61,070 nucleotides of DNA from Ktedonobacteraceae bacterium (GCA_019240835.1 JAFAXQ010000246.1:1-61070); one strand, 5' to 3'. Counted from the first letter of the stretch, positions 16,898 to 58,098 are shown. Translations and numbers: made by a program. Notes: generated by a model not told the origin, from the sequence alone.

Positions 16898-18259
16898 GTG
16901 CTGATGAATGCTTACGATGTAGTCCAGCGAGTACATAACGCAAATATACGGCTTGTGCGCTTCCTGTACTGCGACAACGGTGGCCTCATTCGTGCCAAGA
17001 CAACTCATGCCACTAAGCTAGCTACTCGCATGCAGGAGGGAATTGGGCAGACGCTTGCTATGCAGGCTTTTACTGCAGTTGAGACACTTGCCCAGGTTGA
17101 GGGTATGGGACCCGTCGGCGAATTTCGTCTCGTTCCTGATCCCGAAACATTTGTAATGCTGCCATACGTCCCCAATTCGGCTAGTATGATGTGCGATATG
17201 ATGCGCACAGAGACAACGGCGTGGGAGGCATGTCCGCGTACTTTCTTGAAACATATGGTTGGCAGGCTGGCTGAACGGGGTATGCGTGCTGAGGCTGCTG
17301 TCGAGCATGAGTTTTATCTCGCACGCGAAGAAATGGGCCAGTACGTGCCAGCAGATCGCAGCCTCTGCTACAGCACTATCGGACTGGACGAGCAGGCCGA
17401 GGTGATTGATGCCATTCTTGCAGCTCTGGAGGCTCAGGGTATCTCCATCGAGCTATGTCACACTGAGCTAGGTCCAGGCCAGCAAGAACTATCTATTCAT
17501 CACTCTCCCGTCTTGAGGGCAGCCGATCATGTGTGCCTTGTGCGCGAGACAACACGCGGTGTAGCCCGTGCCTTTGATCTGTTTGCATCATTTGCTCCCA
17601 AGCCTTTCCTGGATCAAGCAGGTAGCGGCGCTCATATTCACATAAGCCTGTGGGGAACTGCAGAGAATACACGCAAAAATCTCTTCTATGATGCCAGTGA
17701 GCGTGGTGTACTTAGTCAGTTGGGGAAATACTTTATCGGCGGTGTATTGCGCCACATTCGTGGTCTGGTTGCCATTACTTGTGGAAGCCCCAACTCCTAT
17801 CGTCGCCTGCTGCCTCACTTCTGGAGTTCTGCGTATGCTGCCTATGGCTATGATAACCGCGAAGGAGCCATTCGTGTGCCATCTGTCTTCTGGGGTCGAG
17901 AAGCCGACTCAATCAACCTTGAACTGAAGAGTGCCGATCATAGTGGAAACCCCTATCTGGCACTGGGTACTCTTATTGCTGCAGGGCTTGATGGCATTGA
18001 GAATCATATCGATGCGGGAGAAGCGCAGGACATTGATCCAGGAAACTACAGTGATCAGGAGCGTGAGCGGCGTGGTATTCATCGTCTACCTACAACGCTA
18101 GATGAGGCCCTTGACGAACTGGAGCGCGACGCTGTCCTCAAAGAGGCGTTGGGACCGCTGCTAGCAACCTCTTATATCGCGGTAAAACGCGACGAGTGCG
18201 CATTCTTCAAAGAGAAATCTCCCGAAGAGGAAGCGCGCCAGCACTTTTATAAATATTAA
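16898..18259 (+). CDS. Glutamine synthetase-family (type I-like) ligase, possibly a gamma-glutamyl-amine synthetase
   Basis: HTELGPGQQELS, GSGAHIHISLW, NSYRRL and NPYLA motifs of the GS catalytic domain. AGGAGG SD at 16887. Confidence 0.8.
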   Translation: MLMNAYDVVQRVHNANIRLVRFLYCDNGGLIRAKTTHATKLATRMQEGIGQTLAMQAFTAVETLAQVEGMGPVGEFRLVPDPETFVMLPYVPNSASMMCDMMRTETTAWEACPRTFLKHMVGRLAERGMRAEAAVEHEFYLAREEMGQYVPADRSLCYSTIGLDEQAEVIDAILAALEAQGISIELCHTELGPGQQELSIHHSPVLRAADHVCLVRETTRGVARAFDLFASFAPKPFLDQAGSGAHIHISLWGTAENTRKNLFYDASERGVLSQLGKYFIGGVLRHIRGLVAITCGSPNSYRRLLPHFWSSAYAAYGYDNREGAIRVPSVFWGREADSINLELKSADHSGNPYLALGTLIAAGLDGIENHIDAGEAQDIDPGNYSDQERERRGIHRLPTTLDEALDELERDAVLKEALGPLLATSYIAVKRDECAFFKEKSPEEEARQHFYKY

Positions 18260-18299
18260 GTCGCTCCGCCAAGGCGACCACAAGAGTCGCCCTGGCTTC

Positions 18300-19799
18300 T
18301 CAACAGGATTTGATATCGTCAGTCAAGCACGTCTGCATCTCTTTCCATAACTCTCGCACATGCTGTTCGGTGGTGCGTAGGTTGCCGATAGCTACACGGA
18401 TAGTGAACTGATTGTGTATCTTCGTGTGCGAGAGAAAGAAGTGGCCGGCTACGTTGATGCGATTCATAATGCGTTCATTCAGTATATTGAGTTGTGTTTC
18501 ATCATCTATGCCGCGAGGGTGGGCGCGGAGACAGACGAGGCTAAACGGGGTAGGGGCCATCAGTTCGAAATCAGGAGCCTCTTTGACCCACTTGGCTAGT
18601 TCTTGCGCGAGCCGGATGTGCTCGCGGATGCGTGCGGCGATGCCTTCTTGTCCGAAGTAGCGCAGTACCATCCAGAGCTTGAGCGAGCGGAAGCGGCGTC
18701 CGAGTGCGTTACCGTAGTCCATCAGGTTGGGTACCTCATCGCCGCTGCTCTCGGCATTGCGCAGGAATTCGGGGGTGAGGCTAAATGCCGCTTTAACGAC
18801 ATCGGGCTTGCGAGTGTAGAAGACGCTGCAATCGACCGGGGTGAAGAGCCATTTGTGCGGGTTGACGATCAGCGAATCGGCGCGGTCGCAGCCGCTCAGA
18901 ATCCAATGCATGTCGGGATCGACGGCTGCTATACCTGCATAAGAGGCATCGACATGCAGCCAAAGCTTGTAGTGCTCACAGATGTCGGCGATGTGGGGAA
19001 TCGGATCGATACTGCTGGTTGAGGTAGTGCCGATGGTGCCGACAACGGCGAATGGGAGCCAGCCAGCGGCCCTATCTTCCTCAATGGCGCGTTCGAGTTC
19101 GGCAACGTCCATACGGAATTGGTTATCCGTTCCAATCTTATGTAGGCCCTGCTGTCCAACACCTAACACGATGGCCGCTTTGTCCACGGAGGAGTGGGCT
19201 TCTTGAGAGGTGTAGAGACGGAGGCGTGGTAGCTCACTGCGACCGGCCATCCCTTGTTGACGGATGTGAAGATCAGCAATAGTCTCGCGAGCAGCAGCTA
19301 AGGCGTAGAGGACACCCGAGGAGGCTGTATCGTTGATGATGCCAAAGAGCGGACGGGGCAACCCCAACATCTGGCGCAGCCAGTCGAGGGTCACCTGCTC
19401 TAGCTCGGTAGCAGCCGGAGAGGTGCGCCAGAGCATTGCGTTGACGTTCAGTGCGCTGCATAGCATTTCACCGAGGATGCCAGGACCAGACCCTGTAATG
19501 CCGAAGTACGCCATGAAACCAGGGCTGTTCCAATGCGTGATCCCGGGCATCAAAATCCTGTCGAAATCAGTTAGGATGGCCTCCATCGCTTCGGGATGCT
19601 TGGGAGGCTGCTCGGGTAACGCACGGCGGATGTCTCCGGGCGTATTGGGTGAGAGTACGGGATACGTGCCGACCTCCCTCAAATACTCGGCTATCCAGTC
19701 TACAATTTGATATCCATAGTGGCGGAATGCTTCCGTCTCCATGTCACCAGTGGCCGCTAGTTGCTGTGCTGCGTCTAGAGCCGTGTGTTCTTCTTTCAT
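18300..19799 (-). CDS. PLP-dependent group II decarboxylase (aromatic L-amino-acid decarboxylase-like)
   Basis: NPHKWLFTPVDCS PLP-lysine motif and DDC-family N-terminus (FRHYGYQIVDWIAEYL). Start moved to MKEEHTA (19799) with a GGAG SD, 13 nt after the upstream gene stop. Confidence 0.85.
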   Translation of the reverse strand: MKEEHTALDAAQQLAATGDMETEAFRHYGYQIVDWIAEYLREVGTYPVLSPNTPGDIRRALPEQPPKHPEAMEAILTDFDRILMPGITHWNSPGFMAYFGITGSGPGILGEMLCSALNVNAMLWRTSPAATELEQVTLDWLRQMLGLPRPLFGIINDTASSGVLYALAAARETIADLHIRQQGMAGRSELPRLRLYTSQEAHSSVDKAAIVLGVGQQGLHKIGTDNQFRMDVAELERAIEEDRAAGWLPFAVVGTIGTTSTSSIDPIPHIADICEHYKLWLHVDASYAGIAAVDPDMHWILSGCDRADSLIVNPHKWLFTPVDCSVFYTRKPDVVKAAFSLTPEFLRNAESSGDEVPNLMDYGNALGRRFRSLKLWMVLRYFGQEGIAARIREHIRLAQELAKWVKEAPDFELMAPTPFSLVCLRAHPRGIDDETQLNILNERIMNRINVAGHFFLSHTKIHNQFTIRVAIGNLRTTEQHVRELWKEMQTCLTDDIKSC

Positions 19800-19812
19800 C
19801 TGTTTCTCCTTT

Positions 19813-20664
19813 TCATGTGTTACTCTGTGGAGCGCGCCAGTAGCGACGGCTGGTGAGATTATCGCCGGGCTGGTTGGCTGTGCTAGAGACCAAACCTGCA
19901 TGTTGCAGGTGATTGAGCGCATCAAGCAAGGCTTTGGGACGCACATGTTGTGGATCAGCAAGCTGGCGTTGCAATATGCGCTGTAAGTCGGCAAGTGTCA
20001 GCCCATCTTCAGTGGGCAGTACCATAAGCACGAGATGAGCCAATCGCTGCTGCGCTTTCCAGTGGACGCTCTGTTCAAACGCCTGTTGCTGCTGCCTTGG
20101 GTTAGCTGGTGGGGGGGAGAAGCGTACCTCGAAACGGCATACAGGTGCTCCTTGCCTCATACACGTCACCTCGCGAATATGCACCGTCTCACCATAGCGC
20201 TGTGCGGCTCCCTCGATAGCCCCTAGCAGCACAGGGCACAATTTACGTGGACTGTCATAGATCAGTACCAGTTCACGTGGGTTATTGGGGGAAAGCACAT
20301 ATTTAAAAAGGGGAGGGGTCAGTGCATCGGATGCGAGATGCATCTGGGCGTGAGCATCGCTCATCACTAGCAAAAGATCACATCCACTATGCACTTGGGC
20401 GAGAAGGTACATACAGAGATGCCTTGTCAAGCCATTTATCATGAAATAGCGGCCATATTCTTGTAGTAAAGTATCCACAGGCGTACGGGTGAGTTTGCTG
20501 GCCATGCTCACTCCGGCTAGCAGAGTCCTATCATCATAGATGCGGCTCACGAGAGGAGCAGTTGCCGCCGTCTCCCCAAGAGCGGCACGATAGGCGTAGA
20601 GCAGTTTCTCGCCGAAGTGCTCGGCTAAATATTTCTCCCATGTTACAAAGATTAAGCCCTGCAT
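19813..20664 (-). CDS. H-NOX (heme NO/O2-binding) domain protein with winged-helix-like C-terminal extension
   Basis: MQGLIFVTWEKYLAEHFGEKLL aligns with the H-NOX N-terminus. A candidate proximal His lies in SDAHAQMH. Y-x-S-x-R motif (YDSPR) followed by GAIEG. The C-terminal roughly 100 aa (LTLADLQRIL...LLDALNHLQHAGLV) look wHTH-like. Confidence 0.7.
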   Translation of the reverse strand: MQGLIFVTWEKYLAEHFGEKLLYAYRAALGETAATAPLVSRIYDDRTLLAGVSMASKLTRTPVDTLLQEYGRYFMINGLTRHLCMYLLAQVHSGCDLLLVMSDAHAQMHLASDALTPPLFKYVLSPNNPRELVLIYDSPRKLCPVLLGAIEGAAQRYGETVHIREVTCMRQGAPVCRFEVRFSPPPANPRQQQQAFEQSVHWKAQQRLAHLVLMVLPTEDGLTLADLQRILQRQLADPQHVRPKALLDALNHLQHAGLVSSTANQPGDNLTSRRYWRAPQSNT

Positions 20665-20779
20665 CTAACGTTTGTTGCCTTTCAAAAAGTCTTATCATCA
20701 ACGGTTAGGGTGAAAGCATTTCCCTTTAGAAGGTCAGGAAACTGTTTCATAAAAACTTGACACTGTATTGATGAACTTA

Positions 20780-20808
20780 ACAATAGCAGAGATGAAATGA
20801 TTATGCAA
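20780..20808 (-). promoter_or_regulatory. Candidate sigma70-type promoter for the H-NOX/decarboxylase pair
   Basis: On the minus strand: TTGCAT, 17 nt, TATTGT, about 110 nt upstream of the ATG at 20664. Confidence 0.4.
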
Positions 20809-20872
20809 TCCTACCGCTGTGTCTGTGGTACTTTCATCACGTCTTGGCAGAGTATCGATCACTCTTTACCTA

Positions 20873-21880
20873 CTAGGTGCCAAATCGTCTATACTGACCT
20901 ACACCCACGCAGTCACGAACCATCTCTAGTGTTTCGTTCGCCTCTTCTCTAGCGCGACGGGCACCCTCGCGAAGAATGTCTTCTACGGTGTCCAAGTCTT
21001 GTTCAAGTTCGTGTCGCTTCGTTTTGAGCTGATCAAAGAACTCCTTTAGCTTCATCTGCAGCTCAGCCTGGGCTTGCCGACGGGTGATGCCACCTCGTTG
21101 GTAACGGCTGAGTATGTCGTTTTGTTGCTCTGGTGTCGCCATAAGTCGATACAGCGCAAAGATCGTATCCATCTTGGGGGCACGTGCGTGGCTGCTCGCT
21201 CTCGCGAGCCTCTTGATCTCGGCAAGTCTGCTGCCTAGTTCGTCGACAGCCGCAAAGATAGCAAAGGCGTTGTTGTAGCTCTTGCTCATCTTCCGGCCAT
21301 CGGTACCTGTGGCCGCATCATTGACCCTCATAGTAGGTATCGGGAAAATGGGAGTGTCAAAAGCGGTGTTAAAGGCCATTGCGATATTGCGCGTAATGAT
21401 CAACCGCTGATCCTGATCCTCTCCCACTGGCACGATTGTTGCACGTAAAGCTAGGATGTCAGCAACCGCGAGCTGGGAGGAGAGAAACGATTCTATAGAT
21501 GAGTTTATTCTTTTCGCTGCTAGGCGCATGTAGTCCATTTGTGCCTTCCTCGTAACGCAGGTCAGGATCCACATCAACTCACAGACCTGTGGTACATCGG
21601 ACTGACGGTAGAATATAGCTTTATTCGGATCCAAGCCCAGAGCCAGATAATCAAGCGCCAATGCCTGCGACTGACGTCGTAGTTGCTCTGGAGCGCGGAT
21701 TGAGATCAGTGCCTGATAGTCCGCAATGAAATAGAAAGACTCGCCGGGGTATTCATGCTGCAGTTCGATGTGTTGCTTGATAGCTGCAAAGTAATTGCCC
21801 AGGTGCAGCATATCGGTCGGCTGGAGGCCTGAGACAACGCGTGCTGGGAAGTTACCGTCGTTGACATGGCTATCTACCAT
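20873..21880 (-). CDS. trpS: Tryptophan--tRNA ligase-like class I aaRS (divergent paralogue-like)
   Basis: HLGN (HIGH), VGEDQDQ and KMSKS motifs at TrpRS spacing. Several otherwise conserved TrpRS segments are diverged. Confidence 0.75.
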   Translation of the reverse strand: MVDSHVNDGNFPARVVSGLQPTDMLHLGNYFAAIKQHIELQHEYPGESFYFIADYQALISIRAPEQLRRQSQALALDYLALGLDPNKAIFYRQSDVPQVCELMWILTCVTRKAQMDYMRLAAKRINSSIESFLSSQLAVADILALRATIVPVGEDQDQRLIITRNIAMAFNTAFDTPIFPIPTMRVNDAATGTDGRKMSKSYNNAFAIFAAVDELGSRLAEIKRLARASSHARAPKMDTIFALYRLMATPEQQNDILSRYQRGGITRRQAQAELQMKLKEFFDQLKTKRHELEQDLDTVEDILREGARRAREEANETLEMVRDCVGVGQYRRFGT

Positions 21881-21924
21881 TTTTGATACCCCTTTCCACG
21901 GCTTACGGCGAGTTCAGAACCTTG

Positions 21925-23208
21925 TCAGTTCATAGGCGAGAGCACTGGCCGTGCATGTACATGCACAGGTGGTCGTATGTCGGGCCAGAAGGTTCTGCGG
22001 TAGTTAGTAGGTAAAATCTTACGTCGATAAATCATTTCCAAGTAGGGTGTGCCACGCGTTCCGCCCGTTCCCGTCGTCGCTTCCGCAGGAAGATAGTGCC
22101 GTGCTATTCCCAAGTGCAGGCACCGCCAGGCATACAGCGCCTGATCTAGTGCCGCCGCCTGGGCAGCGAATGCCGTTGCGCCGGGGGGAGTATTCCCTTC
22201 CACTGTGCATAAGACCGTGCGGAGGTCGACAAAGCGAGGGTGGCCATAGAACACGAGATCAGCAATCTCCGGTGTGGCCGCAAAGTTCTCGGCGTTACGC
22301 TCATCTAGACCCGCGGTGAATATTTGCATGAGTTGGTAGGTGCGAGACTGTATGGCACTTGCATTTCCTGTGGCATCACGGAATTTGGCGAAGTGCTCTG
22401 GAGGCATCGTCTTGAACATCTGAAACAAGGGGACGAGTACTTTTGCGAAAGTGACCGCATCCGATAGGTGGGCAGCGGCTGAATCGAGTTGTCCGCACTT
22501 CGCACTCTCGATGGCAGCAACAACGCCTGCCAAAACCGCCCAGAAGATGCACTCAGAGATGTGGATGGTGCGCAAGAAGAGGAATTCATCGTGTTCCTGT
22601 GTCTGAGGCAGAGCAGTGAGGTAGAGAAGGGCCAAGGTTCGACTTTCATCGAGAGTATAGCTGAACCAGTCATCGGGAGGCGCATCCATCTGAATGCGTG
22701 CAAGCAGTTGGAACTGTACGTTTGTGAGTTGCGCATGTAGTTTCTGGAGAAGGTGAACCCGTCTATCGACAACGTGCAAGTCACAGCTTTGCTGTTGCCA
22801 AGGCTCTACTTGCGCCAGGGAACACACTTCAAATGATAGGAGATCTTGCAACAGCACCTGAATTGCCATCCAGCAGCGAGCACGCACAGTGGACCAAGTA
22901 GCGCGTCGGGTTGTACCCAGCACCCAGTTCAAGACGTGAATATTGGTATAGGCTGGATAGCGTGGTTCTGGGTGGTTCAGGAAGAACCATTCGGAGAACA
23001 GTACTCGTTCGGCCAAGTCAAGTGTGGTGGCAAGTTGTTTTGAAGTGAACGGTTCTTTTTGGCGGAACCAATGAATCTGTTCGTAGAGAGTTGCTGCCCG
23101 GTGTCGGAGTTCTTGGTCAAGGCTGGCACGGCCCTGACTACGCGAGAATCCAATGTACTCACGCACAGAGAGCTGCCGCAAGGCATTTCTAATCTGGTCT
23201 TCTTTCAT
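21925..23208 (-). CDS. Tryptophan 2,3-dioxygenase-superfamily heme protein with roughly 200-aa N-terminal extension
   Basis: HDEFLFLRTIHISE, FAKFRDATGNASAIQSRTYQLM and WRCLHLGIARHYL...GTGGTRGTPYL match TDO signature blocks, including the proximal-His context. Confidence 0.65.
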   Translation of the reverse strand: MKEDQIRNALRQLSVREYIGFSRSQGRASLDQELRHRAATLYEQIHWFRQKEPFTSKQLATTLDLAERVLFSEWFFLNHPEPRYPAYTNIHVLNWVLGTTRRATWSTVRARCWMAIQVLLQDLLSFEVCSLAQVEPWQQQSCDLHVVDRRVHLLQKLHAQLTNVQFQLLARIQMDAPPDDWFSYTLDESRTLALLYLTALPQTQEHDEFLFLRTIHISECIFWAVLAGVVAAIESAKCGQLDSAAAHLSDAVTFAKVLVPLFQMFKTMPPEHFAKFRDATGNASAIQSRTYQLMQIFTAGLDERNAENFAATPEIADLVFYGHPRFVDLRTVLCTVEGNTPPGATAFAAQAAALDQALYAWRCLHLGIARHYLPAEATTGTGGTRGTPYLEMIYRRKILPTNYRRTFWPDIRPPVHVHARPVLSPMN

Positions 23209-23227
23209 TAATCTGATCTTCTTTCAT
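23190..23227. repeat. 19-bp tandem duplication spanning the TDO-like start codon
   Basis: TAATCTGGTCTTCTTTCAT (23190-23208) and TAATCTGATCTTCTTTCAT (23209-23227), one mismatch, read directly. Confidence 0.9.
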
Positions 23228-23513
23228 ATAGCTCTTTCCAAGGGTTGGACTCATTACCACGAGCATAATTGAAGAAAGTTTCTTTCTTTCGGAAAGACGT
23301 GCAGGGATTTCATTTTTAGGGATGAATATACCGACAAGCGGATTTTATGGGTGGGGGGATCAAGCTCTTGGTAAGAACTGTGTATGCCCCATGAATGCGA
23401 CGAATGCGTCGGTTTTTTGCGCCACACGTTGGAAAGCATGTCACTTCTGTACATAAGCGGCTATGTGCTCGTGTATGCTTTCTCCAAATTTAGCCAAAAG
23501 GGGTGATGAGTAG

Positions 23514-23542
23514 TTGACAAATTGCTGGAACAAAGCTATAGT
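23514..23542 (+). promoter_or_regulatory. Near-consensus sigma70-type promoter of the ilv operon leader
   Basis: TTGACA (23514-23519), 17-nt spacer, TATAGT (23537-23542). Confidence 0.6.
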
Positions 23543-23680
23543 AGCAATATATTCTTCAGGGTGCTTGAAGCATTGAAACGGGTGATACAAAGTGCTCCGA
23601 CGAAGGCGACATAGTAGTCTTTGTGTCAACCAGATGAAACTGCTTCAAAAAAACCCCCTTGCAGTTGGTGGAGTACAGTC

Positions 23681-23995
23681 ATGTTGGCAACGTTTAGTAC
23701 AACAGAGATAGCAATGGCCGCTTATCAAGGTGGTATTGAACGTATGCCCTCCTCTCTGCCTGCAATGTGTATGTGCATATCAGCCATGGCTACCACCGCT
23801 GCTAGCATCACTCTTGTAAGAACCGACGTATCTGCGTCGGTTTCTTTATTTGTCGTGCCGCTTCTTGTGTGCTTCCTTCTTCTTGTATGTGTATTAATTA
23901 GCCTCCTCCTTACGCGCCTTACCAGACTTGTTGGGCTTGAGAGTCTGGTAGGGCTAACGAGGGAACTAGCCACAAACACGCTACGGGGAGATTAA
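23681..23995 (+). promoter_or_regulatory. Leader ORF with Leu/Val-rich 3' half (candidate attenuation peptide or small membrane protein)
   Basis: ATG at 23681 with a GGTGGAG SD 7 nt upstream. The last 46 codons (from 23855) contain 16 Leu, 6 Val and 1 Ile. The ORF ends 41 nt before a perfect terminator. Confidence 0.35.
23821..23852 (+). terminator. Terminator-like hairpin inside the ilv leader
   Basis: AACCGACG-tatctg-CGTCGGTT followed by TCTTTATTTG. Confidence 0.4.
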
Positions 23996-24036
23996 GGAAG
24001 CAACGAGGCAACCCAATCCAAAGAAGGTAATTTGAT

Positions 24037-24068
24037 GAGAACCTCCCTTGTGGGAGGTTCTCTTTTTT
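24037..24068 (+). terminator. Intrinsic terminator (attenuator) 27 nt upstream of ilvB
   Basis: GAGAACCTCCC-ttgt-GGGAGGTTCTC followed by TTTTTT. No room for a separate promoter before the ilvB start at 24095. Confidence 0.75.
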
Positions 24069-24094
24069 ATCATCATTTATTCTCAGGAGGAATT

Positions 24095-25870
24095 ATGGCA
24101 GTAGCTGCGAAGGCTCTGCAACAGCAGAGCGCAATACATCAAACAAGCCGACAGGAAGAAGATATTCGTGAACTGGCAGGTAGCCATATTCTCTGTGAGG
24201 CACTTGTGCGCGAAGGGGTGGAGCTGCTCTATGGCTATCCCGGTGGAGCAATTATGCCCTTCTATGATGCACTCACCTCCTATCCGACGCTCCATCACGT
24301 GCTGGTACGACATGAGCAGGCCGCAGCCCATGCCGCTGATGGCTATGCGCGGGCAACAGGCAAAGTCGGCGTTTGCGTTGCAACCAGCGGTCCTGGTGCA
24401 ACCAATCTTGTGACGGGCCTTGCTACAGCGTACATGGACTCAACATCGGTTGTTGCCATCACTGGCCAAGTCGGTCGGCCTCTTATCGGGCGCGATGCCT
24501 TCCAGGAGACAGATATGCTCGGCGTCACTCAGCCGATCACCAAGCACAACTTCTTGGTGCGCAACACTGAAGAGATTGCTGATGTCGTGCATGAGGCATT
24601 TCGTGTTGCGCGTAGTGGTCGTCCTGGCCCTGTGCTCATTGATGTCCCCAAGGATGTGCAGCAAACTAAAGCCTACTATCATCCCTGGGCAGCGGTGACT
24701 TCTGACGAGTATTTACGCCTTCATACCTCACCGCGTCCTGCAGCATATCTGTTGTCCCAGGCAGCCCAATTAATCGCGCAGTCACAGCGTCCACTCATTA
24801 TGGCTGGCCACGGGGTCATTCTCTCAAACGCCTATGCCGAACTGTATGCGTTCGCCGAGAAGACTTCCATTCCGGTGATTACAACGTTGCTCGGCTTAAG
24901 TGCTTTTCCCGATACCCACCCGCTGCACATCGGCATGCCTGGCATGCATGGTCCCGCCCACGTCAATGAAGCCATCGGAGTGGCGGACCTGATTATCGGT
25001 GTGGGTCTACGTTTCGATGACCGTGTGACTGGCAAGGTGAGCGAATTTGCGCCTCACGCACGTATCATTCACATCGATATCGATCCCTCGGAGATGCATA
25101 AGGTAAAGGTAGCAACCGTGCCAATCGTCGCCGATGCGAAAGTAGCATTGTCAGCTCTCACCGAAGTTGTAGCCGCCGACGACAAAAGCGCGTGGCTCAA
25201 GGAAATCCGTTCATGGGAAGCAGAGGACAATGAGCGTCTGCAAGGTGTACAGCGCAATGACAAGCTTCCTGATCCTATTGGTATCGTGCAAGCTATCTGT
25301 ACGGCTACCAATGGGGAAGCGATCATCGTCACCGATGTGGGGCAGCACCAGATGTGGACGGCACGCCACTATTGCTGGACACGTCCCAATAGTCATATCA
25401 CCTCGGGAGGGCTGGGCACGATGGGCTTCGCACTGCCCGCTGCTATGGGCGTCAAGATGGGTTGGCCGGATAGCACGGTGTGGGTCGTAGCTGGTGACGG
25501 TGGTATTCAGATGAACATTCAGGAGTTGGCCACACTGCAACAGGAAGGACTTAGTGTGAAGGTGGCTATTATGAACAACGGCTACTTGGGCATGGTGCGC
25601 CAGTGGCAGCATTTCTTCCACGCGGGCAATTACTCTGAGACGCCCATCAGTGGGCCGAACTATGTAAAGCTTGCCGATGCCTATGGGCTGACTGGCATAC
25701 AAGTCAACCGGCGCGAAGAGGTCGGGGCGGCTGTGCAGCGTGCGATGCAGACCGAAGGCTCCGTCATTATTGATTTCGTGATTGAGTCGGAAGCGAATGT
25801 CTATCCCATGGTAGCCCCCGGTTCAGCCATCACCAGCATGATCGAAGAGGTTCCGGAGGAGAAATCGTAA
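24095..25870 (+). CDS. ilvB: Acetolactate synthase large subunit
   Basis: ThDP-enzyme motifs (GYPGGAI, GPGATN, GGLGTMGFALPAA...GDGG...NN). AGGAGG SD at 24085. The ORF-track start at 24032 would run through the terminator. Confidence 0.9.
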   Translation: MAVAAKALQQQSAIHQTSRQEEDIRELAGSHILCEALVREGVELLYGYPGGAIMPFYDALTSYPTLHHVLVRHEQAAAHAADGYARATGKVGVCVATSGPGATNLVTGLATAYMDSTSVVAITGQVGRPLIGRDAFQETDMLGVTQPITKHNFLVRNTEEIADVVHEAFRVARSGRPGPVLIDVPKDVQQTKAYYHPWAAVTSDEYLRLHTSPRPAAYLLSQAAQLIAQSQRPLIMAGHGVILSNAYAELYAFAEKTSIPVITTLLGLSAFPDTHPLHIGMPGMHGPAHVNEAIGVADLIIGVGLRFDDRVTGKVSEFAPHARIIHIDIDPSEMHKVKVATVPIVADAKVALSALTEVVAADDKSAWLKEIRSWEAEDNERLQGVQRNDKLPDPIGIVQAICTATNGEAIIVTDVGQHQMWTARHYCWTRPNSHITSGGLGTMGFALPAAMGVKMGWPDSTVWVVAGDGGIQMNIQELATLQQEGLSVKVAIMNNGYLGMVRQWQHFFHAGNYSETPISGPNYVKLADAYGLTGIQVNRREEVGAAVQRAMQTEGSVIIDFVIESEANVYPMVAPGSAITSMIEEVPEEKS

Positions 25871-43147: not shown

Positions 43148-44734
43148 ATGACAGTCATACTTGATGGAGTCAATCTGAAACTGCTAGACATTCTGAGAAT
43201 CGCCCAAGACCGTGTTCCTTGTGAGATTCCCAGCAGTGTTATGATGAAGGTTACACATTCACGCCGCTTGTTCGAAGATATCGCCTCACAAAATATCCCG
43301 ATTTATGGTGTCACCACGGGTTATGGAGAAATGGTGTATATGCTCGTGGAAGCAGACAAAGAAAGCGAACTGCAATCCAACTTGGTACGCAGCCATTGCG
43401 CCGGTGTTGGACCACATTTCAGTGTAGAAGAAGCAAGAGCCATGCTAGCCGCACGTGTCAACGCGTTAGCTCGTGGATATTCCGCTGTCAGACCGGAGTT
43501 GATCAAACGGATGCTGCTGTATCTTAATGCAGACATTATACCGATTATCCCTGAAATCGGATCTTTAGGCGCAAGTGGAGACTTGGCTCCACTTTCCCAT
43601 ATAGCCATTACGCTGATGGGGGAGGGGTACGTCTTCCACCACGGACGGAAAACACCGACCAAGGAAGTGTTACAAGAACGTGGGATCACTCCACTGCAAC
43701 TCAAGTTTAAAGAGGGGCTAGCTCTCATCAACGGTACTTCCGCCATGACGGGGTTGGGCGCATTGGTTGTCTATAAAGGGCTAGAGCAGGTCAGACAAGC
43801 TGAAATCGTGTCTGCTTTAGTTCTACAGACACAAAGAGCATCGAGTAGCCCATTTCTTGCGGAAGGACATGAGCTTGCACGTCCGCACGAAGGGCAAATG
43901 AATTGTGCATACAATTTACGTCTATTAACTCAAGACAGTCAACTGATGAAGCCACACGAAGACCTACGCGCTGAGGCGTTGCATCAGAAATCTGAAACCA
44001 CTCAGGTGCATCGAACCAATGTCTACCTTCAGAAAGCATACACTCTGCGCTGTATTCCCCAGATACTTGGGGCTGTGCGCGATACATTGTCCCACGCAGA
44101 AAATACTCTAGAGATAGAATTGAATTCCTCCAATGACAATCCATTATTCTTTGAAGGGCAGGAGATCTTCCATGGAGGGAATTTCCATGGACAACCTGTT
44201 GCTTTTGTTCTCGATTTTGCTACGGTTGCCTTGACTCAACTTGGTGTCGTTTCTGAACGACGAACCAATCGTCTATTAAATCGTCATCTGAGTAATGGAC
44301 TGCCTGAATTTTTGGTGAAAAGCACCCCTGGCTTAAACAGTGGTTTTGCTGGCACACAATATACTGCGACAGCTTTGGTCGCTGAGAACCGTACGATTGG
44401 ACCTGCAAGTATTCAAAGTATTCCATCTAATGGAGATAACCAGGATGTGGTGAGTATGGGACTGATCGCCGCACGCAATGCTAGACGCGTGCTGACCAAC
44501 AACAACTATATTCTGGCAGTGGAATATCTGTCCGCTGCACAGGCAGTAGATATTGCTCAGTGCTACGATCGCCTGAGTAAGGCTGGAAAAATTACCTACA
44601 AAACAGTCCGCTCTCTTGCTGCAACATTGGACCAAGACCGAGATATGAGCGAGGACATTGAAGCTGTCGCCAGAGCTCTGTCGAGAGGCGAATTTTTAAA
44701 GGTTGTTGAGGAGGCAGAGATCCGGCTGATGTAA
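43148..44734 (+). CDS. MIO-dependent aromatic/histidine ammonia-lyase or aminomutase
   Basis: [14 protein letters not shown] (Ala-Ser-Gly MIO triad). [11 protein letters not shown] carries S-H at the specificity-switch position. Confidence 0.85.
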
Positions 44735-44822
44735 AATTAGAAACTGCTCTAGCATCGTTTATCGGAGTGCGAACTTACCTACAGACACAGCAAGACTTGA
44801 CTCTAAGGAGGCAAATACACAC

Positions 44823-46394
44823 ATGGCTACGACCCAGGATGGCTCTCCAGCAAGAGAGCAGACTGCAATCCGTCCTTTCACAGGAGCAGAGTATTTGGAG
44901 AGCTTACGCGATGGCCGTGAGGTCTGGATCTATGGAGAGCGGGTGAAAGATATCACCAGCCACCCGGCTTTTCGCAACAGCGCACGCATGCTTGCTCGGC
45001 TTTACGATGCTCTGCACGATCCTGCCAAGCGCGACGTACTCACGACCGCGACTGATACTGGCAGTGGTGGCTACACCCACAAGTTCTTTCGAACTTCCAG
45101 AAGCGCAGAGGAGCTCGTCGGTGCTCGTGATGCCATTGCTGAGTGGACACGGATGACCTATGGCTGGATGGGGCGTACTCCCGATTACAAGGCTAGCTTT
45201 CTTGCGACCCTCGATGCCAATGCCGAGTTTTATACTCCCTACCAGGCGAACGCCCACCGCTGCTACAAAGAAGCTCAGGAGAAAGTGCTCTACTTCAACC
45301 ATACTATTGTCAATCCCCCGGTCGACCGTAGCCTCCCACCAGAGCAGGTGGGCGATGTGTACCTCCATGCCGAGAAAGAAACAGACGCGGGCATTGTGGT
45401 AAGTGGGGCCAAGGTCGTGGCGACTGGCTCAGCTCTGACCCACTACAATTTCGTTGCCCATCATGGGCTACCCATCAAAAAGAAGGAGTTTGCCATCATC
45501 TGTACCGTTCCCATGGACGCTCGTGGGGTGAAGCTGATCTCGCGTGCGTCCTATGAGATGACCGCAGCAGTCATGGGTAGCCCCTTCGATTACCCGCTCT
45601 CCAGTCGTCTAGACGAGAATGACGCCATATTCGTTTTTGACAAGGTGCTCATTCCATGGGAAAACGTCTTCGTGTACGGGGACTTGGACAAGGTCAATAC
45701 CTTCTTTCCAATGTCCGGCTTCATTCCCCGCTTCACCTTGCAAGGCTGTGTGCGTCTCGCGGTAAAGTTGGACTTTATCGCTGGGCTTTTCCTGAAAGCT
45801 GTAGAGGCGACTGGAGCCAAGGACTTCCGTGGCGTGCAGGTGCGCATCGGTGAAGTGTTGGCATGGCGAAACCTATTCTGGGCACTTACCGATGCCATGG
45901 CTCGCACACCTACTCCCTGGAATAATGGAGCAGTGCTTCCTAATCTCGACTATGGCATGGTCTATCGCGTGTTCGCCACGGTCGCCTACCCGCGTATCAA
46001 GGAGATCATCGAAAACGATGTTGCCAGTGGGTTGATCTACTTAAACTCCAACGCCGTGGATTTCAAGTCGCCGGAGATTCGCCCCTACTTGGAGAGGTAC
46101 GTGCGGGGATCCAATGGGTACACAGCGGTGGATCGGGTCAAGCTCATGAAGCTACTCTGGGAGGCGATTGGGACTGAATTTGGGAGCAGGCATGAACTGT
46201 ATGAGCGCAACTACGCGGGCAACCATGAGGACATCCGGCTCGAAGTCCTCCAAGCAGCCATGGCACTCGGTCAGGTCAATCAGTACAAGGGTTTCGCCGA
46301 GCAGTGCTTGGCCGAGTACGACCTAGATGGCTGGACGGTGCCGGATCTCATCAACCCGGATGATGTTAATGTACATATGAGGAAGTTCAAGTAG
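44823..46394 (+). CDS. HpaB-family two-component flavin-dependent aromatic hydroxylase (oxygenase component)
   Basis: N-terminus [34 protein letters not shown] and the length typical of 4-hydroxyphenylacetate 3-monooxygenase. AAGGAGG SD. Confidence 0.8.
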
Positions 46395-46469
46395 GCGCTA
46401 CGCGCACGTCGGTAGACCAGTAGCAACGACGGGAGGGGAGGAGCGCGCACGGCCTCTAAGGAGCAACGT

Positions 46470-46958
46470 GTGGAGCCACAAGTTTTTCGTCAGGTCATTG
46501 GCCACTTCGCCAGTGGCGTCACGGTGATCACAGCACGTGAGCACGGCACCAACTACGGCCTGACAGCCAGCGCTGTGAGCTCACTCACGCTTGAACCGCC
46601 GATGCTGCTGGTCTGTATCAACAAGAATACTGGCACACAAGCCGCCATCAGCCGCACCCGCGTCTTTGCCGTCAACATTTTGAATGAAGGTCAGGCCGAC
46701 CTTGCCTACAAATTTGCGAAACCGCAGTCTGACAAGTTTCAAGGCGTCGAATTCTGCTACGGTCAATTCGGTGAACCGCTGCTAGCTGGCGCATTAGCTC
46801 ACATTGAATGCCGCGTTGTCACCGACGTTGAGGCTGGAACACACCGAGTCTTTCTGGCAGAGGTTGACCAAGCCAAATCCTATGTTGGCTCACCGCTGAT
46901 CTACTTCCGTGGCAAGTTTGGGTACTTTGATCAGGCTGAGAGGCTGTATGAAAGTTAA
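46470..46958 (+). CDS. NAD(P)H-flavin reductase (HpaC-like small component)
   Basis: FRQVIGHFASGVTVITA flavin-reductase-domain pattern. GTG start with an AAGGAG SD 7 nt upstream. Confidence 0.8.
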   Translation: MEPQVFRQVIGHFASGVTVITAREHGTNYGLTASAVSSLTLEPPMLLVCINKNTGTQAAISRTRVFAVNILNEGQADLAYKFAKPQSDKFQGVEFCYGQFGEPLLAGALAHIECRVVTDVEAGTHRVFLAEVDQAKSYVGSPLIYFRGKFGYFDQAERLYES

Positions 46959-46972
46959 CAGGAAAATACCCT

Positions 46973-47374
46973 ATGTTCGAGCAGACTATACAAAGGTACT
47001 TTCAAGCTCTGGAAACTTCTGATTATGATGGATTAATGGAGCTGTTTGCTCCCGAGGCAGTGGTTTTTTCTCCCTTGTATGGAGAAAGAAAAGCAGTGGA
47101 GTTCTATCAGGAACTCTTCAAAGACACCGCCTCCTCGAAGATCACCTTGTTGCGTGTCTTTGAGAGTGGAACGACTGGAGCCGTCCTTTTTCGCTATGAT
47201 TGGGTTCTCAAAAATGGAACTTCTACGTTTTTTGAATGCGTTGATATTCTCGAGTTCTCGCAGGGAAAAATACAGAGCCTAAAAATCATTTATGATACCT
47301 CTCCCGTTCATATTCTCCTCAGCACCTCGAAGCCCAGTACAGTGGAGGGGACTGCTGGCGAGGTGGCTGCCTAA
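46973..47374 (+). CDS. NTF2/SnoaL-like small protein
   Basis: YFQALETSDYDGLMELFAPEAVVFSP is the typical SnoaL-like opening; 133 aa. Confidence 0.6.
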   Translation: MFEQTIQRYFQALETSDYDGLMELFAPEAVVFSPLYGERKAVEFYQELFKDTASSKITLLRVFESGTTGAVLFRYDWVLKNGTSTFFECVDILEFSQGKIQSLKIIYDTSPVHILLSTSKPSTVEGTAGEVAA

Positions 47375-47469
47375 TGCTACATCCGCTGTCGGGAGCTTGA
47401 GCATGTTGTTCCTTGAGGAAGCTCGTTTTTAGCTGACCGCGCCGATCCCGTCCATCGGCTGCTACTGGC

Positions 47470-49062
47470 TCAGGCTCCGTTCGCGGGCGGAATGCTTTGT
47501 GCGAAATGGAAAAAATTGTTGGGGTCATAGACAGCCTTGACATGCTGCAGCCGTGGCAGATTAGTGCCATAATACGCGTGCTGCCAGTCGGCCAGATCTG
47601 GATCAATGTAGTTCTGGTATGCCTGCCCGCTGGCGTACGGGCGCATTGACTGCCACGTCTCGGTCAGCCAGGAGCGATTCGCTGCGGCGATGGAAGCAGG
47701 GTCGCTCGCGTTCCAGCCTGCCGTGTACTGGGTGGAGAACAGCGCGTTGCGGTGTACAAAAGCTGTCGCGTCGGCGGCCACGCGGTTGATCGCGCCGCCA
47801 TTCGCATCGAGCAAGATGCCGCCCGCACCTAGCGTGGAGGCTTGGCGGCGAGTGATCGCGCTCACCAAGGCGTCGATACCCTGGCGCGGCAGAGCGTGGG
47901 TGAAGTAGTCGGACTTGGCAGCGGAGGTATCTCGCTGCAACTGGCCTTGTGGATTCTGGCTGGGCAAGTGGCATTGAGCCACGGTCTTACCAGAACAGCC
48001 TGCCTCGGTCAGCATAGTATCAAGCAGGTTGTTAGCCCCTACGAAGCGGCTTGTGGGTGCTGTGCTGATGCGGCTGGTCAGCCGTTGCAGTAGCGGGTTC
48101 AGGGCTGCAACAGTGCCTACATAGACGCCGTTCAGGCGCACGATTGGAGCGGAGCGCTTGTCGTTGGTGGCCAAGAGTAGGCAGTTGGACCACAGCTCAT
48201 CAGGCATCACAGGTGCCCAGCCCTGCCAGGCATCGACCACAGCAGCAGCGCTACTCCACGGCCAGTCCAGCGTGAACAGTGACAACGTGGAGACCGGGTG
48301 TGCTCGGAATGTGAACGAAGTGACCACGCCGAAGTTGCCACCGCCACCGCCACGCAGTGCCCAGAATAGGTCAGAATGGTGGCTCGCGTCGCAAGTGAGC
48401 ACGCGGCCATCGGCTAGGACAACCTGTGCCGCGAGCAGATTGTCACAGGTCAGGCCGAACTTGCGACCCAGCACACCAACTCCACCCCCAAGGGTTAGGC
48501 CAGCGATGCCCACTGTCGGGCAGGAGCCAGCGGGCAGTGTCAGCCCCTGCTGCGCAAGCGTCGCGTAAACGTCGATCAGTCGTGCCCCCGCTCCCACCGT
48601 AGCGGTGACAGTGCTCCTATTCACTGTCACCGCACTCATACGGGTCACATCTAGCACCAAGCCAGTAGTCGTCGAATAGCCAGCGTAGGAGTGGCCACCG
48701 CCGCGAGGTGCCAGGGGCAAAGTGAAGCGTTGCGCGAAGGCGAGGCACTTCTGGACATCCGCAGGCGAGGCGCAGTAGGCAATTGCGGCTGGCAGAATAC
48801 CGTCAAAGCGCGTGCTAAAGAGTTGGTGTGCAGTCGGGTACTGTGGACTATTCGGTCGGACTAGCGTCCCCCGCAGGCTTCTGGCGAGCGCCGCCCAGTC
48901 GGCGTCGCTGGGTGATGGTCCCTTGGAAGGGCTTGACGTCGCACTGGCGGAACTTGACTGCCCATTCTGGCAGGCGGACAGCAGCCCTGGCAACGCTGTT
49001 AGGGCGCAGAGTGCTAGAAACTCACGGCGTTTTATCTGTTGTGGTGGAATAGTGTCTGTCAT
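47470..49062 (-). CDS. Secreted (Tat signal plus lipobox) FAD-linked oxidase with BBE domain
   Basis: KRREFLAL twin-arginine motif and LLSAC lipobox. GGGHSYAG and GSCPTVGIAGLTLGGG are bicovalent-FAD-type His/Cys contexts. C-terminal YQNYID...YDPNNFF BBE motif. Confidence 0.8.
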   Translation of the reverse strand: MTDTIPPQQIKRREFLALCALTALPGLLSACQNGQSSSASATSSPSKGPSPSDADWAALARSLRGTLVRPNSPQYPTAHQLFSTRFDGILPAAIAYCASPADVQKCLAFAQRFTLPLAPRGGGHSYAGYSTTTGLVLDVTRMSAVTVNRSTVTATVGAGARLIDVYATLAQQGLTLPAGSCPTVGIAGLTLGGGVGVLGRKFGLTCDNLLAAQVVLADGRVLTCDASHHSDLFWALRGGGGGNFGVVTSFTFRAHPVSTLSLFTLDWPWSSAAAVVDAWQGWAPVMPDELWSNCLLLATNDKRSAPIVRLNGVYVGTVAALNPLLQRLTSRISTAPTSRFVGANNLLDTMLTEAGCSGKTVAQCHLPSQNPQGQLQRDTSAAKSDYFTHALPRQGIDALVSAITRRQASTLGAGGILLDANGGAINRVAADATAFVHRNALFSTQYTAGWNASDPASIAAANRSWLTETWQSMRPYASGQAYQNYIDPDLADWQHAYYGTNLPRLQHVKAVYDPNNFFHFAQSIPPANGA

Positions 49063-49211
49063 AGGTTGTACGAATTGTATTCTACAACTTTTCTTGTGTT
49101 TGGAGACATCATAGCATGTCGTACTAGTGATAGCAACTCACCATTTACTTTGTCAGAAATAGCTTTTGCTTCAAGTCACCTCACCTAGCATTTGTTGTAT
49201 GATCTCAATCG

Positions 49212-49613
49212 TCATCGCCCAGGTGCTGATCCTGGCTCTCTCAGTGTTCTATGATCGATCCCTGCTAGCTCTACCAAGCTGATGTTATCTGCGGCTTGCC
49301 TAGGGGCGGCTGCGTATGTCTGACTGAGCGTAAGAGGCACATGGGGATCCTCGGTTCCATGAAGAAGCACTTGCCAGACTCCTAGTGGCAGCAGTGCAGC
49401 CGGAGAGGCAAGAGCAGAGCGTGCGGGAACCTCATCGAAACTGCCACCCAGGAATGCGGAGACAACGCCATTGCCCACGTTCGGCCGCCATGCTAGCTCC
49501 AGATCAGGTAGCCCTGCAAGGCTGCATTGCTCTGGCGCTGTTCCATAGGCATGTCGTACGGGAGGAGTTTTTGCTGGGTGAGTCGGCACCCTTTCATTTT
49601 GTCCCGAACCCAT
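49212..49613 (-). pseudogene. Probable remnant (C-terminal part only) of an alpha/beta hydrolase/peptidase
   Basis: Only the LLHGTEDPHVP...GIDH C-terminal catalytic Asp/His region is present. There is no nucleophile region or credible N-terminus. Confidence 0.4.
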
Positions 49614-49663
49614 AGTGTTTCCTCATCTCTATGTGGGGAAACGATTCCTGTACGAAAGCGCCG

Positions 49664-51877: not shown

Positions 51878-51970
51878 AGCTAGTTCCTTCCGAGCAAGCA
51901 AGGTTACTGACTCTTGCTGACGTGCAGTATAGCACATCTTTGCTGCTTATGCTAGTGGCTCATGAATTTC

Positions 51971-57336: not shown

Positions 57337-57392
57337 CTCTTCAATTGCCTTCTTTTTAGCTTTAAGCTGCCACTTGCACTCTCTTCCCTGAA

Positions 57393-57506
57393 GGGGAATG
57401 AGAGTTGAGTAGGGCGGTTCGCACATATATAAACAATCTTTGCCATCCCTCATTATACGTATTCGGGGAATGAGAGTTAGGTAGGGCGTTCACACATGGA
57501 TAAACG
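57393..57506. repeat. Two copies of a 42-43-bp direct repeat, 72 bp apart
   Basis: GGGGAATGAGAGTTGAGTAGGGCGGTTCGCACATATATAAACA (57393-57435) versus GGGGAATGAGAGTTAGGTAGGGCGTTCACACATGGATAAACG (57465-57506). Confidence 0.85.
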
Positions 57507-57554
57507 GGCCTTTAGAGGAAATTTGCATACAAGTGACTACTCGTTGTTCCCTAG

Positions 57555-57592
57555 TTGCACCTTGTTGTCTCCTGATTGCACGTTGTTGCTCC
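57555..57592. repeat. Tandem 17-18-bp direct repeat TTGCAC(C/G)TTGTTG(T)CTCC upstream of lanA
   Basis: TTGCACCTTGTTGTCTCC (57555-57572) and TTGCACGTTGTTGCTCC (57576-57592). Related CACCTTGTTAC at 57744-57756 and CGTTGTTCC at about 57541. Confidence 0.7.
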
Positions 57593-57805
57593 ACAAATGT
57601 CATTCAACTGCCAGGGATGGTCCATGTATGCTTCCAGTGTCGAGACGATCCATGGTAGCCTTTGGAAAAACCAAGGCGTTTCAGGCCAAATTGGTCTAAC
57701 CACCAATGGACAGTTTACCTACCTAAATTTTGTACAACTTAGTGACACCTTGTTACTAATTTTGCAGGACTGTTTAGGTAGAAGTGATTGATTTAAGGAG
57801 AAAAG

Positions 57806-58003: not shown

Positions 58004-58036
58004 CGTAGATAGACTTAGTAGTATCCCTGAGGTGAA

Positions 58037-58070
58037 TATGAAGCATGCTTAGAACTGAGTATGCTTCATA
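58037..58070 (+). terminator. Stem-loop between lanA and lanC (possible partial terminator or processing site)
   Basis: TATGAAGCAT-14 nt-ATGCTTCATA; no U-tract. Confidence 0.4.
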
Positions 58071-58098
58071 CCTCCTACCGTAGAGGACGGTTGTTTCT

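Follow-up and report, generated by a model that had tools for sequence, protein, structure and literature searches.

The tryptophan 2,3-dioxygenase (TDO) superfamily of haem proteins contains, apart from the dioxygenases of the kynurenine pathway, a branch of hydroxylases termed bTPH, which act on free L-Trp at different positions of the indole ring (Luz15 at C5, SaT6H and AxT6H at C6, BifE at C4). The functional residues of Luz15 are Tyr106, Arg295, Thr298, Ser302, Ala303 and His375, and an N-terminal YXXY motif of bTPH has been described (PMC13091554). Extra tryptophanyl-tRNA synthetases (TrpRSs) occur in or beside pathways for tryptophan-derived compounds, as in indolmycin and chuangxinmycin self-resistance, and an accessory TrpRS, TrpRS II, is paired with nitric-oxide synthase (NOS) in Deinococcus radiodurans. 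Stand-alone B3/B4 proteins can edit tRNA that carries a natural analogue, as CtdA shows, a proven editing factor that deacylates canavanyl-tRNA(Arg) (PMC10018355, PMC12449066). Chang and co-workers (2026) have shown that gene clusters for non-canonical amino acids can be recognised by their tRNA deacylases; the genome mining guided in this way was confined to the AlaX family, and tryptophan systems are not mentioned (PMC13149037). Here, we describe a cluster of four genes in a stretch of DNA of 61,070 nucleotides from a Ktedonobacteraceae bacterium (GCA_019240835.1 JAFAXQ010000246.1:1-61070), the whole of which is called the window below. The cluster encodes a TDO-like haem protein, a TrpRS-like protein, an H-NOX protein and a decarboxylase of aromatic L-amino acids (AADC). 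Names given to homologues of the H-NOX protein likewise place the source in Ktedonobacteraceae, Chloroflexota. Each part is of a known kind, namely a bTPH-type hydroxylase, an accessory TrpRS, an H-NOX sensor, an AADC and, in relatives of the cluster, a B3/B4 deacylase fold; what is apparently new is that one bTPH-like clade is so regularly linked to a TrpRS paralogue and a B3/B4 domain. We give about an even chance to the reading that the cluster produces a tryptophan oxidised on the ring, together with the corresponding amine, and brings along a safeguard of its own for translation.

The haem protein appears to belong to the bTPH branch of the TDO superfamily rather than to the kynurenine-pathway dioxygenases. 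The Pfam profile Trp_dioxygenase matches residues 201-295 only (47.3 bits), and TIGR03036 gives 64.8 bits against a cut-off of 390.7, below the threshold for canonical KynA. The TDO fold is confined to residues ~200-427 (PDB profile E 1.7e-17; Foldseek match XcTDO), and the AlphaFold2 model (pLDDT 89.3, pTM 0.92) has an extra all-helical N-terminal domain of ~200 residues. In a residue alignment with XcTDO and R. metallidurans TDO, the proximal His corresponds to H365 (in WRCLH), the carboxylate-binding Arg to R277 (in FRD), and the GTGG(T/S) loop is aligned as well, with the catalytic distal His of TDO (H55 in XcTDO) replaced by Ile215. Among 21 homologues of 28-65% identity, Y84 and Y87 (in R-Y-P-A-Y), R277, T280, S284, A285 and H365 are invariant. 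Y84 and Y87 make up an N-terminal YxxY motif, and the spacing of the other residues is equivalent to that of Luz15 (R+3, R+7 and R+8), with 190 residues from Tyr (Y87) to Arg compared with 189 in Luz15. Homologues from Streptomyces, Umezawaea and Aliiruegeria, found in the genome scan, align with the haem protein over the full length; the motifs common to these Streptomyces-type proteins are RYDYPSY, which contains the YxxY motif, HDEYLFLRT, FRxFTEGASAIQS, W..THY and GTGYTxGxPYL. The placement in the bTPH branch follows from this match to Luz15 in residues and spacing together with the full-length alignment. The haem protein further resembles Luz15, SaT6H/AxT6H and BifE in the spacing of its Arg/Thr and Ser-Ala residues and of the proximal His, in the loss of the distal His and in a length of ~420-450 residues. 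However, it lies in a separate clade with ~27-36% identity to the presumed bTPH proteins, and neither BLAST nor a hidden Markov model could align its first 80 residues. An earlier note on this DNA had cited the remodelling of tryptophan by PrnB as a precedent; the match of the haem protein is to the bTPH hydroxylase family instead. The cytochrome P422 (DUF6875) Trp hydroxylases were rejected as relatives, their thiolate-ligated fold being unrelated. The family is a small one, with 186 representatives at E<=1e-30 among 1.84 billion at 50% clustering.

The clade of the window protein is almost always linked to TrpRS-like and B3/B4 genes, whereas the Streptomyces-type enzymes are not. Loci were gathered by exact-protein look-up, by a one-genome-per-species scan and by a metagenome scan, and relatives of the window proteins were placed in each locus by tblastn. 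Loci counted as informative if the homologue was full length and each flank reached at least 1.2 kb, and 31 distinct loci qualified. In 29 of the 31, the haem-protein gene has a TrpRS-like neighbour within 1.4 kb, usually only 18-45 nt away; the two loci without it are an insertion-sequence-ridden one (L003) and a Pyrinomonadaceae contig (L016). Because the pair is kept in so many loci, the juxtaposition of the two genes is not due to chance. It spans Chloroflexota, Acidobacteriota, Alpha-, Beta- and Gammaproteobacteria and Planctomycetota, with Paraburkholderia elongata, Bradyrhizobium acaciae, B. valentinum, Candidatus Angelobacter / Terriglobia, a gammaproteobacterial metagenome-assembled genome and Gemmataceae among the named hosts. 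No TrpRS gene was found within 10 kb in any of ~24 loci of the more distant Streptomyces-type relatives.

The linkage bears directly on an account of the locus as ordinary catabolism, in which a divergent tryptophan 2,3-dioxygenase would start the kynurenine pathway and only by chance have the housekeeping trpS as a neighbour, along with a gas sensor and a decarboxylase that have nothing to do with it. The annotation of homologues as 'tryptophan 2,3-dioxygenase', the housekeeping character of the flanking genes (ilvBNC-leuA, thrB, thrC and the glutamine-synthetase-like gene) and the occurrence of H-NOX orthologues in unrelated contexts would fit such an account. It is nevertheless extremely improbable, given the TIGR03036 score far under its cut-off, the missing distal His, the extra YxxY-bearing domain of 200 residues and the lack of a formamidase or kynureninase gene nearby, and given that the TrpRS adjacency holds across phyla and that the nearest relatives of the TrpRS-like protein are all cluster-associated.

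The TrpRS-like protein scores 140.9 bits with tRNA-synt_1b and 196.9 bits with TIGR00233 (trpS; cut-off 176.75). Its HLGN, KMSKS and GEDQ motifs and the indole-binding Asp132 are intact, and it carries the substitutions H43Q, Y125S and M129A (G. stearothermophilus numbering), a combination unique to the window copy among 39 distinct cluster-linked copies that were aligned with generic TrpRS and the G. stearothermophilus enzyme. In these 39 copies the Trp pocket is well kept, with Asp132 present in all, Met129 and His43 in 37 each and Tyr125 in 34. V141 and V143, the residues altered in engineered 5-hydroxytryptophan synthetases, are unchanged in the window protein. Kitabatake et al. (2002) reportedly found that substitution of H43 leads to indolmycin resistance. 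M129A abolishes the binding of chuangxinmycin by the G. stearothermophilus enzyme (PMC8814664). Since changes at M129 and H43 are tied to inhibitor binding or resistance in other TrpRSs, the window protein has the appearance of an active synthetase in which the surface that contacts analogues is remodelled. The numbering of the G. stearothermophilus sequence used for the alignment agrees with the residues given in PMC8814664.

The window copy is unlikely to be the housekeeping trpS product. Its nearest relatives, at 50-82% identity, are all encoded beside TDO-like genes, and ordinary TrpRSs of Planctomycetes and other groups appear only at or below 48% identity. Only two relatives exceed 60% identity, whereas the database contains hundreds of H-NOX orthologues from Ktedonobacteraceae at 60-70%. 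The locus of a close relative, L001/L002 (GCA_973786345.1), agrees with the window in its four genes and in what flanks them, and its TDO-like protein is 89% identical to that of the window. The dN/dS ratios between the window and L001 are 0.17 for the haem protein, 0.28 for the TrpRS-like protein, 0.21 for the H-NOX protein and 0.11 for the decarboxylase, from which it follows that all four genes are maintained by purifying selection; ilvC and the glutamine-synthetase-like gene give 0.05-0.08, and the value for the TrpRS-like protein is the highest of the genes compared. The TrpRS-like partners in Bradyrhizobium and Paraburkholderia must be second copies because their motifs are degenerate. 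It is the scarcity of close relatives, the high dN/dS and these degenerate partners that make a housekeeping role unlikely. No second trpS was found in the window.

Compared with the self-resistance TrpRSs for indolmycin and chuangxinmycin, the TrpRS-like protein would likewise be an extra copy in or beside a Trp-derived pathway, and it is changed at residues in contact with those inhibitors (H43, M129 and Y125). The presumed threat here, however, is a mischargeable amino-acid analogue, the product of a single haem enzyme, and not a dedicated TrpRS inhibitor, and most partners in other phyla differ in keeping a normal pocket and having a degenerate KMSKS loop. The likeness to D. radiodurans TrpRS II and NOS lies in the pairing of an accessory TrpRS with a Trp-modifying haem enzyme, nitric oxide (NO) being brought in here by the H-NOX protein. 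The haem enzyme is of the TDO superfamily instead, no NOS domain was found among the window open reading frames (ORFs) of at least 150 residues, and TrpRS II is not the closest solved relative of the TrpRS-like protein (E 1.2e-34 versus 5e-51 for ordinary bacterial TrpRS).

When the neighbouring ORFs were clustered all against all, a third partner came to light, a protein of ~220 residues with a B3/4 domain (PF03483; 35.7 and 31.5 bits versus a cut-off of 29.3). Separate or fused, it is present in ~25 of the 29 TrpRS-linked loci. The related loci in which this partner was noted are taken from the set L007, L009, L011, L013-L018, L022, L055-L090 and L095-L099. The TDO-like protein is fused at its C-terminus to the B3/4 domain in Paraburkholderia, in Bradyrhizobium and in ~20 of ~110 full-length representative clusters, giving forms of ~640 residues. 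In one lineage (P0184, 567 residues) the B3/4 domain is placed at the N-terminus of the TrpRS-like protein, and a fusion of a tRNA-synt_1b fragment with the TDO-like protein is also present. The best solved relative in a profile search is CtdA (9f7e; E 5.9e-5), followed by the editing domain of PheRS-beta. Like the deacylases BesG and AlfB, this partner of ~220 residues stands beside an enzyme expected to make a non-canonical amino acid. It differs from CtdA in its low identity, as the profile E-value indicates, in being often fused to the biosynthetic enzyme or the synthetase, and in its absence from the window.

No B3/B4 match was found anywhere in the window or in L001/L002, and only a remnant of the domain is left in L006. 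In the Ktedonobacteraceae lineage of the window the B3/B4 gene has been lost, the haem-protein gene comes before the TrpRS gene, and two genes, those for H-NOX and the decarboxylase, have been added downstream. Because of this loss the B3/B4 partner was invisible to the earlier note, which had named conservation of the neighbourhood as a check; the outcome is strongly positive for the TDO-like and TrpRS-like genes, weakly positive for the decarboxylase gene (L006 alone, beyond L001/L002) and negative for the H-NOX gene. Its general idea of tryptophan or indole chemistry with an accessory TrpRS has stood up, in that the relatives are cluster-linked and the contact residues changed, and its parallel with the Deinococcus TrpRS II and NOS finds no support, no NOS being present among the window ORFs of at least 150 residues. 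No description of the linkage of TDO-like, TrpRS and B3/4 proteins, or of the variant with a decarboxylase seen in the window, was found in the literature searched, in which the primary bTPH paper was not covered. To our knowledge, no editing factor or editing activity is known for TrpRS.

Other genes near the trio were seen at several loci. Some homologue loci are clusters for non-ribosomal peptide synthetases (NRPSs) in Acidobacteriota. A PrnB-family haem protein, which is a second member of the TDO superfamily, adjoins the B3/4-TrpRS-TDO-like trio at L007 (6640-7773) and L095 (7062-8204), and a multi-module NRPS is also close to the trio at L007. A conjugative element (L099, 1-17335) carries the TDO-like and B3/4 genes with two TrpRS genes (47% and 28% identical to that of the window); it has a TrwC relaxase, a type IV coupling protein and a serine recombinase, and an alcohol dehydrogenase and a class I/II aminotransferase are encoded upstream. 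Among further fusions of the haem protein, P0332 (905 residues) has an ATP-grasp / L-amino-acid ligase as its C-terminal half, and P0433 (562 residues) has an N-terminal segment like class-V aminotransferases.

The decarboxylase of the window scores 327.8 bits with Pyridoxal_deC and matches a bacterial DOPA decarboxylase (7xin) with E 6.5e-115 and plant tryptophan/tyrosine decarboxylases and human AADC with E 1e-95 to 1e-107. The lysine that binds pyridoxal phosphate (PLP; in NPHKW) and the catalytic-loop Tyr (in MDY..LGRRFR) are present. At L006, a decarboxylase 41% identical to that of the window follows the TrpRS-like gene, the haem protein and the TrpRS-like protein there being 48% and 46% identical to their window counterparts. 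Because L006 also has all three, the arrangement of haem protein, TrpRS and decarboxylase occurs in two distant lineages.

The fourth protein has an H-NOX domain in residues 1-183 (HNOB, 81.1 bits). His105, the YxSxR motif (Y136-S138-R140) and three Cys residues (143/168/176) are invariant in 27 homologues. It comes closest to NO sensors from Shewanella and Nostoc (Foldseek TM 0.79 to Nostoc H-NOX), and it shares with the H-NOX proteins of S. oneidensis and Nostoc the fold, the proximal His, YxSxR, a non-polar distal pocket and the three conserved Cys. The residue aligned with the O2-stabilising distal Tyr of the Thermoanaerobacter protein appears to be aliphatic, and we infer that the haem pocket is of the NO-selective type. 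The AlphaFold2 model shows a long helix (189-215) followed by three helices and a hairpin (224-277) in a winged-helix-like arrangement. Characterised H-NOX proteins either stand alone as partners of kinases or cyclases or are fused to chemoreceptors, whereas the window protein has its own winged-helix-like domain; no description of an H-NOX protein with a DNA-binding output of its own was found in the literature searched. The architecture of 283 residues is common in Ktedonobacteraceae, with 743 matches, of which the best 120 are full length at 60-85% identity. Three other Ktedonobacteraceae orthologues stand in unrelated contexts (loci L049-L054), and in two of these the H-NOX gene follows a gene for a PNPOx_N-like protein of 350 residues. 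No H-NOX gene was found in ~60 other TDO-like loci. In view of these contexts and this absence, H-NOX was ruled out as a conserved member of the cluster and is at best a locally recruited regulator.

From these parts a pathway of four steps can be proposed. First, the haem protein, by virtue of its family membership, would hydroxylate the indole ring of free L-Trp with O2 or H2O2. That the chemistry concerns the free amino acid is suggested by the conservation of the Arg and Thr that bind the carboxylate and amine, by the use of free Trp in characterised relatives and by the fusion of one homologue to a ligase; a free amino-acid product would also fit the location of several homologues inside NRPS clusters. 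Second, judging from its class and from the adjacency seen twice, the decarboxylase would turn hydroxytryptophan into hydroxytryptamine, which would be serotonin if the hydroxyl group is at C5. Third, the linked TrpRS paralogue may serve as an analogue-insensitive spare that keeps tRNA-Trp correctly loaded. In most other lineages the B3/B4 deacylase-like domain would strip mischarged tRNA, and the window lineage would rely on the remodelled pocket of its TrpRS. 5-hydroxytryptophan (5HTP) is incorporated by wild-type bacterial TrpRS, and ~12% incorporation of 5HTP has been given for wild-type AP1 TrpRS. The product would thus be close enough to Trp for mischarging, and therefore the pathway would travel with a spare TrpRS and usually with a CtdA-like deacylase. 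Fourth, and as the weakest step, the H-NOX/winged-helix protein, in an operon with the decarboxylase, could tie amine production to NO or the redox state.

Several observations weigh against this scheme. The bTPH placement rests on the published residue numbers of Luz15 and on presumed bTPH homologues. D299 and R301 of Luz15, which are said to steer regiochemistry, correspond to G281 and A283 in the haem protein, and His216, nearly invariant in the TrpRS-linked clade, is missing from the Streptomyces-type proteins; this clade may catalyse a different oxidation. The decarboxylase joins the pair in only two independent lineages, one being the window with L001/L002 and the other L006. Besides the window, L001/L002 is the only relative in which an H-NOX gene accompanies the cluster. 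The putative DNA-binding domain of the protein is suggested by a secondary-structure pattern and a weak Pfam match to HTH_Crp_2 (E 0.078), a search for inverted repeats that might act as an operator gave nothing convincing, and no promoter or operator was identified. The second lysine of KMSKS has been lost in 31 of the 39 TrpRS-like partners, which fits poorly with a replacement synthetase there. The existence of all three pairwise fusions of the trio hints that the proteins form a physical complex and do not act as protection factors independently of one another. The degenerate KMSKS loops and the fusions are poorly explained by protection; they point to a complex and keep two other accounts of the TrpRS-like protein alive.

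In one of these accounts the TrpRS-like protein is no resistance copy but works, with B3/B4 where it is present, as a subunit or partner of the haem enzyme that delivers or holds Trp or recruits tRNA-Trp, a role resembling that of D. radiodurans TrpRS II, which binds and activates NOS. The conservation of the Trp pocket alongside the degeneration of KMSKS would fit such a role; KMSK is kept in only 8 of the 39 partners, the others having KMDTE, RMDVS, KMSVR, TMSRT, PIQLT and the like. The pairwise fusions, among them that of TDO-like to B3/4, and the tight packing of the genes in many loci would fit it as well. However, canonical HLGN, KMSKS and GEDQ are retained by the window copy and its nearest clade, and the two TrpRS genes on the L099 mobile element suit protection better. 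Because eukaryotic TrpRS is functional with KMSAS, loss of the second lysine need not mean inactivity either. The subunit role is possible, if doubtful. Among the TrpRS-like genes of L005, L006, L013-L022 and L058-L094, in which the KMSKS loss was noted, some also have altered HIGH or GxDQ motifs.

The other account is a tRNA-dependent pathway, in which the TrpRS-like protein loads tRNA-Trp, the haem enzyme oxidises the bound Trp and B3/B4 releases it, or in which the TrpRS-like protein deliberately charges oxidised Trp for use in proteins or for tRNA-dependent transfer. In its favour, the three conserved partners all centre on aminoacyl-tRNA, and the window copy has smaller residues at Y125 and M129 and no deacylase beside it; Deinococcus TrpRS II reportedly charges 4-nitro- and 5-hydroxy-Trp, according to work of Buddha and Crane from 2005. 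Nevertheless, there is no variation in the Arg and Thr with which TDO and Luz15 hold the carboxylate and amine of free Trp, free L-Trp is the substrate of both Luz15 and BifE, a fusion to an L-amino-acid ligase occurs in one homologue, and V141 and V143, the positions altered in engineered 5HTP synthetases, are unchanged. In addition, there is no tRNA gene in the window, and the only tRNA genes near the haem gene in 14 related loci are unrelated ones several kb off. A tRNA-dependent pathway is very unlikely. A bolder combination would make the haem oxygenase, the TrpRS paralogue and B3/B4 one tRNA-Trp machine with a half-dead synthetase as the tRNA-recognition arm of the deacylase or, in the window variant, an NO-controlled synthetase that loads oxidised Trp. 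We regard this as improbable; if true, the machine could be the first editing system devoted to an analogue of tryptophan, and the window variant, with the deacylase lost, the pocket enlarged and the motifs intact, would provide natural, conditional incorporation or tRNA-dependent transfer of hydroxy-tryptophan.

The four genes run head-to-tail on the minus strand and are separated by 44, 208 and 13 nt, in full agreement with the earlier note, and the TDO-like, TrpRS-like, H-NOX and aromatic amino-acid decarboxylase identities that it assigned are borne out by Pfam and NCBIfam (Table 1). The last gap separates the start of the decarboxylase gene from the stop codon of the H-NOX gene; this start is ATG 19799, the mechanical ORF extending to 19994, and the same version of 499 residues is also called in L001.

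Table 1 Coordinates of the cluster genes and associated regions in the window
Feature	Position	Strand	Basis
TDO-like haem protein, putative bTPH type, 427 aa	21925..23208	-	Pfam, structure model, residue alignment
TrpRS-like protein, putative accessory paralogue, 335 aa	20873..21880	-	tRNA-synt_1b, TIGR00233, motif alignment
Intergenic spacer, 208 nt	20665..20872	-	Alignment with L001: several blocks kept
H-NOX protein with C-terminal winged-helix-like domain, 283 aa	19813..20664	-	HNOB, model, homologue alignment
Aromatic L-amino-acid decarboxylase, group II PLP, DOPA/5-HTP decarboxylase type, 499 aa	18300..19799	-	Pyridoxal_deC, PDB profile
Presumed promoter region upstream of the haem-protein gene	23209..23290	-	85% identity to L001

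The H-NOX and decarboxylase genes probably have a promoter of their own in the 208-nt spacer. A scan for promoters and terminators gave counts of 6 versus 5.2 and 6 versus 4.8 in shuffled sequence, which is no excess, and no minus-strand promoter match upstream of the haem-protein gene. No riboswitch or T-box was matched in Rfam at E<=1 within 17500-24500, and the base composition is unremarkable. A role in anti-phage defence was discarded, since PADLOC gave no match for the four proteins or for the B3/4 partner.

The cluster is flanked by a convergent glutamine-synthetase-like gene on one side and by a divergent ilvBNC-leuA-thrB-thrC group on the other. The glutamine-synthetase-family gene (16898-18259, plus strand) converges on the decarboxylase gene with stop codons 40 nt apart and is conserved at this place only in L001/L002. 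Its product matches gamma-glutamylputrescine synthetase best (473.6 bits, under the cut-off of 650) and could gamma-glutamylate the amine product. On the ilvB side, ~100 nt of the window (23291-23400) are absent from L001, forming an indel between the conserved region next to ilvB and the 80 nt proximal to the TDO-like promoter. The ilvB upstream region (23401-24062) is 86% identical to L001 and contains a sigma-70-like promoter (23514-23542, plus strand; 11/12), a conserved hydrophobic, Leu/Val-rich ORF of 104-124 residues (23621-23995) and, directly before ilvB, terminator-like hairpins at 23820-23843 and 24037-24062 (plus strand). The region has no Rfam match; it may be a leader/attenuator or encode a small membrane protein. 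Farther away, at 43148-51937, a second aromatic amino-acid pathway encodes an ammonia-lyase (559 bits), an HpaB-type 4-hydroxyphenylacetate 3-hydroxylase and a flavin reductase, followed by a BBE-type FAD oxidase and a BTAD/SARP-type regulator, in a layout like that of tyrosine-to-caffeate modules. A NACHT-domain NTPase gene (935 residues) and a LanC-like gene (54646-59484) lie near the right end of the window and are unrelated to the cluster.

If the proposed pathway is correct, Ktedonobacteraceae, a group already valued for its secondary metabolism, would have a bacterial route to a serotonin-like amine that uses a haem-type tryptophan hydroxylase and not the pterin enzyme of animals. The H-NOX/winged-helix proteins of this group would represent a new type of output for bacterial NO sensing. 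The interest lies mostly in the trio and in what it implies for the fidelity of tryptophan codons. Together with the TrpRS paralogue and the B3/B4 domain, the haem oxygenase would form a widespread and apparently undescribed module, and its existence would mean that cells making hydroxylated tryptophans must guard their tRNA-Trp. A trans-editing factor or a high-fidelity TrpRS paralogue would then fill a gap in translational quality control. Deacylase-guided genome mining would extend beyond the AlaX family, and the TrpRS-like proteins would offer natural variants with altered analogue selectivity for genetic-code expansion.

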